Part shown: positions 7,816 to 63,806 of the stretch, piece by piece | How the letters are laid out: every line of letters begins with the position of its first letter | How positions within the stretch are numbered: position 1 is the stretch's first letter | DNA from: Schmidtea polychroa | Lineage: Eukaryota | Length of the DNA stretch: 64,000 nucleotides | Reading direction: 5' to 3' | NCBI GenBank assembly: GCA_044892525.1 | Contig: CM097885.1 | Coordinates: 35,528,001 to 35,592,000, forward strand | Notes under the pieces: model-generated | Seen by the model: only the letters and a program-made list of their open reading frames with translations | Database searches by the model: none | What the model was told of the DNA's origin: nothing | Translations under genes and position numbers: made by a program

Positions 7816-8965
7816 AGTAGGTAGTTAGTAGCTTACGGGAACAATAGGGGGGGGGGTAAAAAATGTTGCAAAATTTTGATTGCATAACTTTTTCCTAGAC
7901 ATTTTTTGATTACATAATTGTTGCCATAATGCCCAATTTTTTCTGGGATTTTAAATACAAATTTTTTTTTTCAATAAACAAGCCAAGGATAAATATTATT
8001 TGGGTGGGTCTCCTTTGTCCTGAGAATTTCAATAGAAAAAGGTAGTCTTCAATAAAAAAGCATGGATTTTTCACACAATAGTGAGGGGGGTCTCGATGGT
8101 CCTGGGATTTTCAATACAAAAAGGCGGTCTCACTAAAAAAGCATGGTAATTTAAGGTCTCAGGATATTTTCAATACAAATAGGTGGTCTACACAAAAAAA
8201 AGCCAAGGATTTTTCGAATTAAATTAAGGTGGGTCTCCTTGGTCCTGAGAAAAAGGTGGTCTACACTAAAAAACGTGGTAAATTTTTAAATTAAAGTAAA
8301 TTATGGTTCTAAAAATTAAATTACAGTAAATTATGGCTCAAATTTTTGAATTACAGTAAATTATGGCCAAACTTTTTGAATTACAAAAAATTATGGTCCA
8401 AAAATTTCAATTAAAGTAAATTATGGTTCTAAAAAATTAAATTACAGTAAATTATGGGTCCAAATTTTTAAATTAAAGTAAATTTAGGTTCTAAAATATT
8501 AAATTAAAGTAAATAATTGTTCAAAATTTAAAATTAAAGTTAATTAAGGGCTCAACTAAGTAAATTAAGGTTCTAAATAATTAAATAATCAATGGTAAAA
8601 AAAAATTTAAATTAAAGTTAAATAAGTAAATTAAAGTAATAATTTTTAAATAAGTAAATTTAAGTAATGTAATAAGTAAATTAAAGTAAGATTTTTTAAT
8701 TTATTAACAAAAAAAATAGAAGGTGTTTGGGAATTGAAATTTTTTAATGAAAATTTTTATGAAATAATTTTTTAAGATAATTTTTAATGGATATTTTTAT
8801 GAAATATTTTTCAATGGTAATTTTTAATGAAAATTTTTATGAAATAAATTTTTTCATTAATTTTTAATAGAAATTTTAATGAAATATTTTTCAATGATAA
8901 TTTTTAATGGAAATTTTAATAGAATAATTTTTAAGATAATTTTTAATGAAAATTTTTATGAAATA
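7816..8965 (+). repeat. Left terminal repeat region of C (GGTCCTGGGA/GGTCCTGAGA units, ~30-bp AAATTAAAGTAAATTATGG units, TTTTTAATGAAAATTTTTATG units)
   Basis: Same order of sub-arrays as the D arms; anchor ATAGAAGGTGTTTG near 8717. Confidence 0.85.
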
Positions 8966-9186
8966 ATAATAATAATAATAATAATAATAATAATAAAAAT
9001 AATATTAATAATATATCAACCAAATACTATACAACACATAAAAAATTAACTAAACACATAAAAATAACTAGACACATAACAAAACATATAAACATTAACT
9101 AAACACATAAAAATGAACTAGACACATAACAAACATAAAAATTTACCAAATAACAAATGTAAAGATATAAAATTTATTCAATAAAA

Positions 9187-59400: not shown

Positions 59401-62400
59401 TTTATTATCTTAGTTGATTCATATTAACTTGAATGATCAATGACTAGAATTTAAAGTTCTTTCTTGTCCATTAATTATATTTTTTTAATTTAGTATATTT
59501 TGAATAATTTAAATTTTTACAATAATTTAATCAATTTTTACCAAGTTATTGATGCCTTGAGTTCAAATATCTTAAAAGTGCCTTGAGTTCAATTAATTTT
59601 TCATCTAATTTTTCAAGTGATGAGTATTTTTCTTTTTAAAGATCAATTTGTTAGTACATAGTTGTTGGTTGTAAGTAGTTGGTTGTTAGTACTTGGTACT
59701 TGGTAGCAGGTATCTGGTTGTAAGTATCTAGTTGTAGGTTGATATTTGTTAATTTCTCGATGGGTTTTGATGGTGGTTGTTAGTACATGGTTGTAAGTGT
59801 TTAGTATTTAGTTGTTTGAAAGCTAGTGGTTAGTATATGGAAGCTAATTAATGAGTAGGTGGGGATTGAGAGTGATCAATACCCCTACGACTAGTACCTT
59901 TACGACTAGTACCTTTACGACCAGTACCCTTACGACCAGTACCCTTACGACTAGTACCCTTACGACCTGTACCCTTAGGGGGTCAAAACATCCTGTCGGA
60001 TAAACTCAGAGTATATATAATAAAACTGATCAACAATAAGTATTTATTGAATGCGATTTTTACTTTGCAATAATAAGTTATCAATTAAAAGAAGAATGTT
60101 TTGTAAATTAGAATTCATTAGTCTTTCATTGTAATTAAAATTATTTTGAATTCCACGTGGTGATGAGTTGTGGTTTTTTGATGAAAATCAACATTTTTGT
60201 TAAATTTGAAAAGGTTTTTCTAATGATTGTAATTAAATATATTTTTGAAGATAGATAAAAAATTAATTTAAAAAGCATTTCATAAAATACAATAAAGAAT
60301 ATTTAGTAGTTAGTTGTAAGTATCTGGTTGTTTGAGAGTTAGTTAGTACGTGGTATCATGGTGTAAGTATTTGTTAGCACCTAGTTAAAAAATAATCAGT
60401 AACCGATTGTTGGTAACTGTTGAATTATTAGTATTTTTATTATTATTATTATTATTATTATTATTATTATTATTATTATTATTATTATTATTATTATTAT
60501 TAATATTATTATTATTATTATTCCATTTAAATTTCCATTTAAATTTTCATTATAAATTACATTTCTCAAAAAAGTTGGTGGTTATTCAATCTTTTGATAA
60601 TAAATTTAAAAATCTTACTTTAGCTTTAATTTAAATTTTGAACCATTGTTTTCTTTAATTTAAAATTTTTAACTTTAATTTACTTATCCTTAATTTACCT
60701 AATTATTCTTTATTTCTTAATTTTACACCATAATTTACTAAACAACTAAATATAATCCTTATTTTCATATTTAACCAATAATTTCATGTGGTCATCTGGT
60801 TGTAAGTGTTTGGTATCTAGTTGACAGTGCTTAGTACTAGGTAAGTTACTTGGTTGTTAGTACTTGGTTGATAATGCTTAGTACCTGGTTGATGTTGGTT
60901 ATATGTACTTGGTATCTAGTTGTTAGTAACTAGTTGTATGTAATTAATGCTTAGTAGTTGGTAACTGGTTGTTAGTACTTGGTAGGTGGTTGTTAGTTGG
61001 TTGTAGGTACTTAGTAGGTACTCTAGTTGGTTAATAATGCTTAGTACCTGGTTGTTGTTGGTTGTTAGTACTTGGTATCTAGTACCTAGTTGGTTGGTTG
61101 TTAGTAACTAGTTGTAAGTATTTGGTAGCAGGTAACTGGTTTTTAGTATCTAGTTGTAGGTTGTAGGTACTTAGTAGTTAGTTGATGATGCTTAGTACCT
61201 GGTTGATGTTGGTTGTAAGTACTTGGTATCAGGTAACTAGTTGGTTGTAGGTACTTAGTAGTTGGTAACTGGTACCTGGTTGATGTTGGTTGTAAGTACT
61301 TGGTATCTAGTTGTTAGTAACTAGTTGTAGGTAATTAATGCTTAGTAGTTGGTTGTAGGTACTTGGTATCAGGTAACTGGTTGTTAGTAACTAATTGTAA
61401 GTACTTGGTAGCAGGTAACTAGTTGTTAGTAACTAGTTGTAAGTACTTGGTAGTTGGTAGTAAGTACTTGGTTGATGTTTGTTGTAAGTACTTGGTATCT
61501 AGTACCTAGTTGGTTGTTTTTGGTTGTTAGTACTTAGTAGTTGGTTGTAGGTACTTGTTAGGTGGTTAATGGGTAGATGGTTGTAGGTACTTCGTAACTG
61601 TTTGTTAGTATCTAGTTGTAGGTACCTGGTTGATGTTGGTTGTATGTACTTGTTAGGTGGTTTTAGGTACTTGGTTGATGTTGGTTGTATGTACTTGTTA
61701 GGTGGTTGTTAGTACTTAGTTGTTGGTTGTAAGTAGTAGGTATCTGGTTGTTAGTTGTTAGCTGGTTGTAGCTAGTTAATGGGTAGGTGGTTGTAGGTAC
61801 TTCGTAACTGTTTGTTAGTATCTAGTTGTAGGTACCTGGTTGATGTTGGTTGTATGTACTTGTTAGGTGGTTTTAGGTACTTGGTTGATAATGCTTAGTA
61901 CCTAGTTGTTGTAGGTTGTTAGTACTTGGTATCTAGTACCTGGTTGTTGTTAGTTGTTAGTACTTGGTAGCTAGTTAATAGGTAGGTGGTTGTAGGTACT
62001 TGGTATCTAGTTGTTAGCTAGTTGTTTTTGATTGTTAGTACTTGGTAGCTAGTTGGTTGCTTGTTTTTGGTTGTTAGTAACTAGTTTTAAGTACTAGGTA
62101 TCAGGTAACTGGTTGTTAGTATTTAGTTGTAAGTACTTGGTATCAGGTAACTAGTTGGTTGTAGGTACTTAGTAGTTGGTAACTGGTACCTGGTTGGTTG
62201 CTTGTTTTTGGTTGTTAGTACTTGTTAGGTGGTTGTATTTACTTAGTATCATGTAACTAGTTGTTAGTAACTAGTTGTAGGTATCTGGTTGTTAATATAT
62301 GTTCGTAAGTTACTGGTTGTTGGTACTAAGTTGTTGGTTTGTTGTTGAATTATTATTAAAATTTGTCTTTGATAAATATGTCATAAAAATTTTCATTAAA

Positions 62401-63806
62401 AATTATCTTAAAAATTTCCATCTAAAATTATCATTGAAAAATATTTCATAAAAATTTACATTAAAAATTACTTAAAAAATTATTCCATAAAAATTTCCAT
62501 TAAAAATTACCATTGAAAAATATTTCATTAAAATTTCTATTAAAAATTACTTAAAAATTATTTCATAAAAATTTTCATTAAAAAATTTCAATTCTCAAAC
62601 ACCTTCTATTATTTTGTAATTAAATTTTAAAATCTTACTTTAATTTACTTATTTAAAATTTTTTACCATTGATTACTTAATTTAAAAATTATTACTTTAA
62701 TTTACTTATTTAAAATTTTTTACCATTGATTACTTAATTTAAAAATTTGGACCATTATTTACTGTAATTTAATTTTTAAGAACTTAAATTTACTTTAATT
62801 TAAAAATTTGGACCATTATTTACTTTAATTGAAAAATCTGGACCATAATTTACTGTAATTTAATATTTTAGAACCATAATTTACTTTAATTTAATTTTTA
62901 GAACCATTATTTACTGTAATTTAATTTTTAGACCCATAATTTACTGTATTTGAAAAATTTGAACCATTGTTTTTTTTAATTTAAAATTTTTGACCATAAT
63001 TTACTGTAATTTAATTTTTTAGGACCATAATTTACTGTAATTTAAAAATTTGAGCCATAATTTACTATAATTTAATTTTTAGGACCATAATTTACTTTAA
63101 TTTAATTTTTAGGACCATTATTTACTTTAATTGAAAAATTTACCACGTTTTTAGTGTAGACCACCTATTTCTCAGGACCAAGGAGACTCACCTCACTATA
63201 GTCTGAAAAATCCTTGGCTTTTTTAGTGTAGACCAGCTTTTTGTATTGAAAATATCCCGAGACCTTAAATTACCATGCTTTTTTAGTGTAGACCACCTAT
63301 TTCTCAGGACCAAGGAGACTCACCTCACTATAGTCTGAAAAATCCTTGGCTTTTTTATTGGTAGTAGGATTTTTGTATTGAAAATCCCAGGACCATCGAG
63401 ACCCTTTCACTATAGCGTGAAAATTCCATGCTTTTTAGTGGTAGTCGGATTTTTGTATAGAAATTTTTTTTTTGTATTGAAAATCCCAGGACCATTGTTT
63501 TTGTATAGAAAAAATTTTTTTGTATTGAAAATCCCAGGACCATCGAGACCTCCTCACTATAGTCTGAAAATTCCTTGGCTTTTTTAGTGTAGACCAGCTT
63601 TTTGTATTGAAAAAAATTTTTTGTATTGAAAATCCCAGGACCATCGAGACCCCCTCACTATAGTGTGATAAAAAAATAATTTGGACCAAAAATCCCTGAA
63701 AGCAAAAAATGTGAGTTGGAACAATTGCGTAATAAAAAGTTGGAACAATTTTACCCCCCCCCCCCTGGGGGGGGTAATTGTTCCAGTGGGCTACTATCTA
63801 CCTACT
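56430..63806 (-). repeat. Right arm (~7.4 kb) of D
   Basis: Reverse complement of 48150-55530. Confidence 0.96.

Follow-up and report, generated by a model that had tools for sequence, protein, structure and literature searches.

Polymerase-only and gene-less palindromes as probable satellites of full-gene Polintons with the same ends in Schmidtea polychroa

The elements designated C, D and E in the analyzed stretch of DNA (the window, 64,000 nt) probably belong to one AGTAGGTAG lineage of Polintons which occurs in three multi-copy forms, the two defective forms being likely satellites of the full form and not of A-type elements. All three tiers, i.e. full-gene elements (tier 1), C-type palindromes with pPolB only (tier 2) and gene-less D/E-type palindromes (tier 3), share their ends and have 6-bp target duplications. 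A preliminary description of the window had likewise proposed three tiers, which were indeed found, each class being multi-copy and having target duplications of its own; the A-type helper that it had placed above them was wrong, because full AGTAGGTAG elements exist. This multi-copy occurrence and these duplications rule out that C and D arose as one-off deletions, an origin which had been named as refuting the proposal.

As outlined in Table 1, the window consists of nested Polinton/Maverick insertions, and every one of them has a separate 6-bp target duplication. According to the element ends and target duplications A lies inside C+E, and B and D lie inside A. Both related terminus families described before were recovered at their positions, AGTAGGTAG at C, D and E with the word at 7816, 15867 and 48150 (+) and at 63806 (−), and AGTAGATGGAT at A and X with the word at 20160 (+) and 4048 (−). 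A further AGTAGGTAG match at 12238 falls within the pPolB coding region and marks no terminus. Position 15867 is an internal terminus: C and E are halves of one element reaching from 7816 to 75388 (beyond the window) with the target duplication TGTTAT. Two separate elements were ruled out, since the flanks match only when C+E is taken as one unit. C+E is a recombinant of a tier 2 left arm with a tier 3 centre and right arm, inserted as one unit.

Table 1 Features of the window (positions counted from its first nucleotide; parts beyond it are given as negative numbers or numbers above 64,000).
Feature	Position	Strand	Description
X right arm	1..4048		10.5-kb pPolB-only AGTAGATGGAT palindrome, whole element −6414 to 4048, target duplication AACGCT
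C left arm	7816..16095		outer terminus, arrays, pPolB, spacer, inverted arrays, internal terminus
C pPolB	9187..13077	−	uninterrupted 1296-aa ORF
Spacer block of C-type and D/E-type elements	13797..14544		sequence alignment
Internal AGTAGGTAG terminus	15867..16095	+	centre unit of C-type palindromes
E	16103..20159		D-type centre and start of right arm, joined to C arm; resumes past A at 70401-75388
A	20160..64000, end at 70394		AGTAGATGGAT Polinton inserted in E, target duplication TATCAT
B	25935..41165		unrelated Polinton, AGTAGTGAGG ends, 383-bp inverted repeats, target duplication AATTTG
D	48150..63806		15,657-bp gene-less palindrome, target duplication AAAATA
~95-bp motif ending in TATATA word	54846..54953	+	further copies 3752-3848, 18152-18244, 21641-21719, 51942-52050, 57007-57114, 59910-60018

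Element A had been regarded as bearer of the full gene set, and an intact A helper is ruled out at the window locus: its pPolB gene is split by B, its penton-like gene is split by D, and its capsid gene contains an in-frame stop. The A integrase ORF begins past 63826, and the A protease is a PF00770 protein. At 27.7–31.2 kb the genes for capsid, integrase and ATPase are those of B, not of A; B encodes a double-jelly-roll capsid, an integrase plus a PLA2-like domain, an A32 ATPase and its own pPolB. An Rfam search of the window gave a tRNA-like unit in B as sole notable match. Element X is no full element but a palindrome with two pPolB copies; an in-frame stop near 1293 interrupts its pPolB (1-3297, +) and is common to both arms.

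The preliminary description had named full-length AGTAGGTAG Polintons as a refuting finding and asked whether any AGTAGGTAG element encodes integrase or capsid; full AGTAGGTAG Polintons with integrase, candidate capsid, ATPase and protease do exist. These 16–17 kb elements encode pPolB, protease and a candidate capsid together with two penton-like genes, an integrase, an ATPase and a TBP-like protein, and they have terminal inverted repeats with 5'-AG ends. In all 8 retrieved elements the gene set lies between AGTAGGTAG ends, and 7 of them have target duplications. One further full element, whose terminal 30 bases are exactly those of C, has a target duplication, and one more full-type element is complex and without a matching one, so that 8/10 full AGTAGGTAG elements examined show the 6-bp duplication. 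Pfam identified pPolB (PF03175, E 3.7e-19), the integrase over its first part (PF00665, E 1.2e-8), the A32 ATPase (PF04665, E 8.6e-7) and a TBP domain; integrase and protease are 66% and 67% identical to the A integrase and the PF00770 protein of A, respectively. For the candidate capsid and penton proteins Pfam and PDB sequence searches gave no match. The candidate capsid has Atlas look-alikes at 0.98 with PF21738 (DJR domain) on 22–30% of members, the penton candidate resembles Preplasmiviricota clusters without named family, and the capsid/penton gene order fits the Polintons in the consulted part of PMC4028283. An exact integrase word was found at 260 genome sites (control 0). Stops in the integrase are common to 9/9 copies and fall in a 42-base GT..AG stretch, which by its sequence is likely an intron. 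A dead integrase in all full AGTAGGTAG copies, which would force borrowing from A, is unlikely because the stops are confined to this one short stretch, where the A integrase has a microsatellite tract, (ATT)n.

Tier 2 comprises 13–18 kb palindromes in which two pPolB genes are arranged head-to-head. Between the ends of those read whole, pPolB was found and no integrase, ATPase, protease or capsid. Target duplications were present in 12/13 elements with both ends seen (4/5, 7/7 and 1/1). Along its entire length the left arm of C shares 91% identity with the left arms of complete palindromes found at other loci, and C encodes pPolB only, as described before, no other ORF reaching 120 aa. Its pPolB is 88% identical to that of a full AGTAGGTAG element, 63% to A and 29% to B, with a mean synonymous distance of 0.14 in the core to full-element pPolB. 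Exact words of the C/F pPolB and the C spacer occurred at 1,292 and 189 genome sites, respectively (control 0 for both). Among the 58 pPolB matches listed beyond 1.8 Mb, 38 form head-to-head pairs less than 10 kb apart and the integrase word is near none of these; among the 20 single matches listed, 10 are near an integrase word. The centre of a complete C-type palindrome is a ~250–310 bp unit that in most cases contains two termini pointing inward; for its junction 363 candidate sites were counted across the genome.

Long reads are known to yield long, near-perfect inverted repeats as an artefact, and our analysis was made on the assembly. Fold-back reads as origin of the palindromes are nevertheless extremely unlikely: the mirror symmetry ends at the element ends, the flanks match each other at 53–71/200 bases, which is about chance for the composition, and they carry direct 6-bp duplications in 7/7 tested cases; furthermore, the centres are unique, and one common centre structure was found again at hundreds of loci. 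A two-way complementation drifting to a split genome, tier 2 giving the polymerase and polymerase-less full-type elements the integrase and capsid, agrees with the ratio of pPolB to integrase words (1,292 to 260), with the uninterrupted pPolB in only 4/10 full-type elements examined, and with two elements which lack the C-terminal part of pPolB and keep their target duplications. We consider it decidedly unlikely, however, as full elements with uninterrupted pPolB exist and every truncation seen is different, and therefore a polymerase-less lineage is not established; the deletions may also post-date insertion.

Analysis of dN/dS for C-type pPolB, as the preliminary description had suggested, was restricted to uninterrupted ORFs, i.e. 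17 of the 30 nearest loci, the 13 interrupted ones being left out as dead copies. The resulting value of ~0.15 (0.148 among 13 tier 2 elements) indicates purifying selection. Variants shared within tier 2 that did not segregate among the controls, 8 full elements from a single subfamily, comprise 54 synonymous and 18 non-synonymous changes, at ~575 synonymous vs 2,278 non-synonymous sites. Part of the purifying signal may be inherited from full elements. In the pPolB tree two tier 2 palindromes nest among full elements, and recombination therefore imports helper sequence. The sister arm is closest in 15/15 palindromes, with 0–12 differences in ~2.9 kb (8 pairs identical) vs 3–53 to other copies, and this near identity points to snap-back replication as the probable origin of the arms. 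Several palindromes have an identical disabling change in their two arms; either dead tier 2 copies move in trans or the arms were converted after insertion.

These data also bear on whether the palindromes are passive by-products, i.e. repeated snap-back errors of the full element, mobilised in trans as other non-autonomous transposons are, in which the polymerase of tier 2 is a passenger and its conservation is inherited from the helper. Such an origin would account for the intermingling of tier 2 and full pPolB in the tree, the 13/30 interrupted loci, the several spacer lengths, which suggest repeated origin, and X, which has dead pPolB in both arms yet the clean target duplication AACGCT. 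It is unlikely all the same, since the C-specific spacer is present at full length at ~40 scored loci with 94–98% identity in addition to its 189 word sites, and this wide sharing makes tier 2 a lineage; the shared variants absent from the sampled full elements are strongly synonymous, and dS is larger in tier 2 (0.10) than among full elements (0.047), the latter having been sampled by likeness to one copy.

Tier 3 is represented by D, with arms of 7.4 kb (99.8% identical) and a unique centre of ~0.9 kb. The ORF scan found none of 120 aa or more, confirming D/E as non-coding, and tblastn of the proteins compared gave no match in a D arm except a spurious terminal-repeat ORF; D as a cryptic coding element was rejected on the lack of protein matches and the indel-rich alignment. 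The genome contains ~1,100 gene-less palindromes with a median length of 16.7 kb, and an exact word of the D interior occurred at 2,200 sites (control 0). At ~16 kb each these copies make up ~2% of the genome, a class invisible to protein-based annotation. The first 26 Mb of contig 1 yielded 37 terminus pairs, 28 of them D-type, 6 with the integrase word and 3 unclassified; 14 of the D-type pairs measured 14.8–17.7 kb, 7 were shorter and 7 spanned 27–40 kb, one of these long pairs being a 33-kb multimer of D-type units. Target duplications of four D-type elements were exact in two, matched at 5/6 bases in one and were absent in one. The D interior has no homologue in the full AGTAGGTAG elements scanned, and the ~95-bp motif is missing from 7/7 full AGTAGGTAG elements as well as from 4/4 C-type palindromes scanned; tier 3 is therefore not a simple deletion of tier 1.

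The similarities between C and D noted previously were reproduced. Their subterminal arrays (8006-8961 vs 48556-49579) are 76% identical, and the internal block (13830-14530 vs 54130-54830) aligned with 488 identities at a score of 107 vs −116 for the best shuffle; the spacer block is missing from all 8 full-length elements scanned. The ~95-bp motif, said to be shared by D, A and X, was found at the sites given in Table 1 including four in D, located in the terminal repeats of A and X and the arms of D/E, but it is not private to them, as its 20-letter core occurs at 14,172 genome sites (control 0). It has no Rfam match as a known RNA, and single-sequence folds revealed no common structure.

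The ends also bear on the helper family. Ends of C and D align over 0.7–1.3 kb with full AGTAGGTAG elements (D with 958–1,308 of 1,501 bases), compared with 0 bases aligned to the ends of A, X or B, and neither C nor D has ends recognisable as A-type. That C replicates the AGTAGGTAG family while C and D/E take integrase and capsid from A-type helpers, as originally proposed, is very unlikely, and its strong form is already refuted by the full AGTAGGTAG elements with integrase and candidate capsid at ~260 sites, which leave no need for borrowing from A-type elements. In favor of such a link are the AGTAG start common to both families, the motif shared by D/E and the A/X terminal repeats, a gene-less element with A-type ends which has the D interior at 67–69%, and the nesting of the elements in one another at the window locus. 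Against it, the first 40 bases of D match a full AGTAGGTAG element at 39/40 but A at 22/40 (17–22/40 for C/D vs A/X), the motif sites are far more numerous than D and A together, and D-type copies sit in C/F-type and B-type pPolB genes too, so that nesting reflects element density, not partnership. In a weaker form D would integrate by its AGTAGGTAG ends and the A-type cis motif would serve an A-encoded function such as transcription or packaging; this motif of D, missing from its own helper, survives as the one remaining cross-family link. C could act as a replication supplier to the AGTAGGTAG family, but there is no need for it, since the same pPolB is present in full elements; polymerase from C might also serve D. 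The hierarchy is thus one within a single terminus family, mirrored in the A family, and does not run across both; a cross-family hyperparasite chain would be more surprising and is not supported.

For tiers 2 and 3 as satellites of tier 1, we propose that during protein-primed strand-displacement copying the polymerase may switch to the displaced strand, by which about half a genome would become a palindrome. Its single strand could fold into a long hairpin which rebuilds the double-stranded origin and would therefore be copied efficiently, with the arms made alike at or near each round. Tier 2 probably retains the polymerase since this enzyme, which is fused to the priming protein, would favor its own template; it would thus copy itself and borrow only the integrase and perhaps the capsid, and tier 3 would borrow all functions. 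The loose match of palindrome and helper lengths suggests a packaging limit. More tentatively, there may be a self-replicating satellite class of genome-length palindromes which combines a doubled, selected polymerase, hairpin copying and borrowed integrase and capsid, and which is itself parasitised by gene-less palindromes, their core and TATA-like motif being a portable module that has acquired the ends of two or more helper families. Such a ladder would then have arisen in both terminus families, so that Polinton replication would generally give rise to snap-back satellites, and these would indirectly attest that the elements are still copied outside the chromosome and packaged. Replication and particle formation of animal Polintons have so far been inferred, not observed; palindrome families with freshly matched arms offer a natural record of the copying mechanism, the selected polymerase-only class a genetic handle on cis vs trans functions, and helper-matched lengths a testable sign of packaging.

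According to the consulted parts of PMC8097293 and PMC4028283, Polintons/Mavericks are defined by AG-start terminal inverted repeats, 6-bp target duplications, pPolB, a retroviral-type integrase, an A32-like ATPase, an adenovirus-type protease, a double-jelly-roll capsid and a penton-like gene one gene from the capsid. Tier 1, A and B carry these ends, duplications and genes, the capsid and penton genes of tier 1 being candidates. They differ in copy number (thousands here, compared with a median of 8 and a maximum of 287 for vertebrate Polintons in PMC8097293), in the likely small intron of the integrase, which the vertebrate Polintons covered there lack, and in the TBP-like gene and whole-element palindromic derivatives. 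Palindromic polymerase-only Polintons were not found in the titles and abstract openings listed from freely accessible papers, the scope of our search; in 10.1101/2023.08.22.554363 the terms 'palindrom', 'non-autonomous' and 'helper' do not occur.

With helper-type ends and own target duplications at independent sites, C- and D-type elements are non-autonomous Polinton derivatives, which keep the ends and lose genes. Such derivatives were reportedly described by Kapitonov and Jurka in 2006. In C. elegans strains pPolB and a terminal repeat without integrase occur at 10 loci (consulted part of 10.1101/2024.01.15.575659). As presented there these loci are remnants and not a multi-copy family, unlike the two-gene palindromes with own target duplications and purifying selection found here. 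Palindromic products of template switching in the terminal-protein-primed replication of phi29 were reportedly observed by Esteban and colleagues in 1997, and copy-back or snap-back defective virus genomes carry an inverted duplication formed through strand switching. Short origin-bearing parasites outcompete the full replicator in phi29 terminal-protein-primed replication (consulted part of PMC11494085). Those parasites and snap-back genomes are short and not integrated, whereas the palindromes here are genome-length, integrated with target duplications and lasting as families. Long inverted arms with tandem arrays are known from Foldback elements. Large retrotransposon derivatives (LARDs) are non-coding elements moved in trans (consulted part of PMC6431247). 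The palindromes differ from both in their Polinton ends and 6-bp duplications, and no transposase or LTR homology was seen in them.

Phage satellites such as P4 and the PICIs bring an integrase of their own and share no descent with their helper. Tier 2 likely resembles them in being self-replicating with borrowed late functions, but it lacks an integrase and descends from its helper, as the C pPolB and the C/D ends are homologous to those of full elements. Tier 2 thus likely works like a satellite and is by descent closer to a defective interfering genome.

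The preliminary description had C, a polymerase-only element with AGTAGGTAG termini, replicate this terminus family while borrowing integrase and capsid from helpers such as A, which belongs to a different terminus family, with the non-coding D and E borrowing everything. A picture lacking full AGTAGGTAG helpers has to be abandoned, since full-length AGTAGGTAG elements carrying integrase and capsid-type genes were found, the first among the first four terminus pairs sampled. When its pPolB-to-protease interval was used as a query, 13 of the 40 candidates scored were full-length matches. 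All eight elements read whole encode pPolB, a protease, a 407-aa capsid-type gene, a 132-aa ORF, two penton-like genes, an integrase, an ATPase and a TBP-like gene between AGTAGGTAG ends spaced 15.5–16.8 kb apart, and seven of them have target duplications. The terminal 30 bases of an additional full element are exactly those of C. Full copies are often interrupted in some gene, pPolB being uninterrupted in 4 of 10. The integrase stops common to 9/9 copies fall within a 42-base GT..AG stretch, which from its sequence is likely an intron; the same position in A is an (ATT)n tract. The integrase word occurs at 260 genome sites. Like the full AGTAGGTAG elements, A has a gene for a small TBP-like protein.

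Furthermore, 39 of the first 40 bases of D are identical to one full AGTAGGTAG element, compared with 22 identical to A, and the first 1.4–1.5 kb of C and D align with both full elements having complete left ends but show no alignment with A, X or B. Given the full elements and these shared ends, the helper of C and D most likely belongs to their own AGTAGGTAG family. A full-type element at 32.4 Mb retains about 30 terminal bases at its left end, lacks the pPolB end and has a target duplication; this suggests that a very short element end would suffice, if the deletion preceded insertion.

The ~95-bp motif that D shares with A and X, as described earlier, is indeed present in all three: the terminal repeats of A and of X contain it, and D has four copies. 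Its core occurs at 14,172 sites and is therefore a common module of the genome's elements rather than specific evidence for A helping D. The motif was absent from 7/7 full AGTAGGTAG elements and 4/4 C-type palindromes scanned; with its terminal TATATA word it could be a promoter, one which full AGTAGGTAG elements do without. Apart from this motif, no homology was observed between the D interior and A, B, X or one full element. The interior is shared at 67–69% with a 10-kb gene-less element having A-type ends and six motif copies, so that D is, by sequence, chimeric, with AGTAGGTAG ends around a core that moves with A-type ends as well. Together with X, this element indicates that the A family likewise comprises full, pPolB-only and gene-less forms.

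Gene-less palindromes of the D type (tier 3) are abundant. A D-interior word has 2,200 sites, 1,100 per strand, frequently as inverted pairs spaced 5–6 kb, and the D-type terminus word counts 1,130 and 1,136 sites. The first 26 Mb of contig 1 yielded 37 terminus pairs, 28 of which contain the D word and lack the integrase and pPolB words; these 28 have a median length of 16.7 kb, with 14 of them in the range 14.8–17.7 kb, for comparison with 16.1–16.8 kb for undeleted full elements. Three further copies read whole showed an exact target duplication, a match at 5/6 bases and none, respectively. In one 33-kb D-type element, three ~6.7-kb units run head to tail and a fourth is inverted; the units are 99.5% alike, and the element has no matching flanks.

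The polymerase-only palindromes (tier 2) likewise recur. The C pPolB start plus spacer (1,001 bases) matched over 889–1,001 bases at 40/40 scored loci with 94–100% identity. At the 30 loci nearest C pPolB, a set that counts the window copy and, for several elements, each of the two arms, the upstream sequence was C-type in 28, another type in 2 and the full-element type in none, and 17 of them keep an uninterrupted ORF of at least 1,250 aa. C-type elements read whole are palindromes of 13–18 kb, each arm running terminus, arrays, pPolB, spacer, inverted arrays to a ~250–310 bp centre, which in most holds two inward-pointing termini, followed by the mirror image; in a shorter type the centre differs. 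Where both ends were visible, target duplications were found in 4/5, 7/7 and 1/1 elements in three sets, the first drawn from ten loci, three of them truncated, chimeric or not covered to the end. The pPolB word common to C and full types has 1,292 sites, with a dense cluster (42 of the first 100 matches listed) in the first 1.3 Mb of contig 1. Leaving aside these 42, 58 matches were listed beyond 1.8 Mb. Head-to-head pairs spaced by less than 10 kb account for 38 of them, and no integrase word lies within 12 kb of any of these; of the 20 single matches, 10 have one in that range. Extrapolation gives a few hundred polymerase-only palindromes genome-wide. Variable acidic tandem repeats occur in the N-terminal region of pPolB, and their type distinguishes C-type from full-type copies.

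Selection on the tier-2 polymerase was assessed over 951 ungapped codons. Mean pairwise dN/dS was 0.148 for 13 tier-2 elements, represented by one arm each and by uninterrupted ORFs only; the 4 full elements gave 0.182, and comparisons across the two groups 0.124. Variants present in at least two tier-2 elements are 75 synonymous and 20 non-synonymous; without those segregating in 8 full elements, 54 and 18 are left (~0.08 per site). Singletons (39 synonymous, 41 non-synonymous) are nearer neutral, as expected from decay after insertion. In the pPolB tree two tier-2 palindromes are placed among full elements and the tiers therefore recombine; part of the tier-2 synonymous variation could have been donated by helper subfamilies outside the sample. 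The simplest reason for tier 2 to retain pPolB would be that the enzyme prefers its own template. C-type elements possibly supply polymerase to D, which is not required.

In 15/15 palindromes the pPolB arms are 0–12 bases apart (8 identical), compared with 3–53 to the nearest other copy; the D arms are 99.8% identical along 7.4 kb, and the symmetry stops at the element boundary. Protein-primed strand displacement is established for adenovirus and phi29, and parasites of phi29 replication are reported to take a palindromic form. By analogy, an inverted duplication would arise when copying switches to the displaced strand; the displaced strand of a palindromic molecule would then fold into a hairpin bearing a double-stranded origin, and repair or re-copying from one arm would make the arms alike. 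Conversion between the arms after insertion is an alternative to such hairpin copying and would also account for disabling changes common to both arms. In reconstituted phi29 replication, origin-keeping parasites emerge and take over (PMC11494085). The composite C+E fits a template switch or recombination between tier 2 and tier 3 in the centre region, followed by insertion as a single unit.

The window (G000:C1:35528001-35592000) lies in a 781-Mb, AT-rich eukaryotic genome. Analysis of the window together with its flanks (20 kb on the upstream side, 60 kb downstream) revealed nested insertions, every one bounded by its own 6-bp target duplication; directly beyond A the E sequence picks up again and matches the right arm of D. 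A is disrupted here in three genes: B interrupts pPolB, D interrupts a penton-like gene, and an in-frame stop breaks the capsid gene. At 27.7–31.2 kb, the capsid, integrase and ATPase genes are those of B, whose pPolB shares only 27–29% identity with the pPolB of A and of C. In the palindromic X, the two pPolB copies carry the same in-frame stop.

Coordinates of elements and features (unprefixed, window positions; G000:C1, contig 1 of this genome; L116 and L001, single loci)
Feature	Position	Strand	Target duplication	Remarks
X	-6414 to 4048		AACGCT
C+E, single element	7816 to 75388		TGTTAT
A, inside C+E	20160 to 70394		TATCAT
B, inside A	25935 to 41165		AATTTG
D, inside A	48150 to 63806		AAAATA
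Decayed host-side sequence, X–C interval	4200-7200			with pieces of other mobile elements
A-type capsid gene fragment, X–C interval	5938-6104			167 bp
Acidic repeats, pPolB N-terminal region	12689-12863			also in other copies
tRNA-like unit in B	27338-27410	-		adjoins capsid gene; Rfam RF00005, 32.4 bits, above gathering score
PLA2-like domain, N-terminal on B integrase ORF	29032-30285	+		PF08398
Direct duplication	35789-36880	-		460 bp, 73%; between B pPolB end and following ORF
Decayed downstream Polintons	86975-94895; 104200-112700			one with pPolB 61% identical to C pPolB
TBP-like gene, full AGTAGGTAG element	L116:4846-5319	+		PF00352, E 3.6e-16
TBP-like gene, A	L001:2268-2702	+		PF00352, E 1e-14
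Gene-less element, A-type ends	G000:C1:7601568-7611622		TTTAAA
33-kb D-type element	G000:C1:25662891-25696050
Full-type element, short left end	G000:C1:32427383-32441838		present

Overall, the earlier observations are confirmed in part; of the proposed hierarchy the three tiers are real, and the cross-family, A-type helper is not upheld. Tentatively, the palindromes may represent a class of satellites that replicate themselves and have a portable core without genes, a reading we consider possible and somewhat short of probable. Non-autonomous Polintons are known; our searches of the open literature found no account of Polinton satellites that are palindromes, carry two polymerase genes, or are gene-less at helper length. 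The full AGTAGGTAG elements (tier 1), like A and B, are Polintons by the definition given in PMC8097293 and PMC4028283, with the capsid fold suggested only by look-alikes. In C. elegans, remnants comprising pPolB and a terminal repeat but no integrase have been described (10.1101/2024.01.15.575659).
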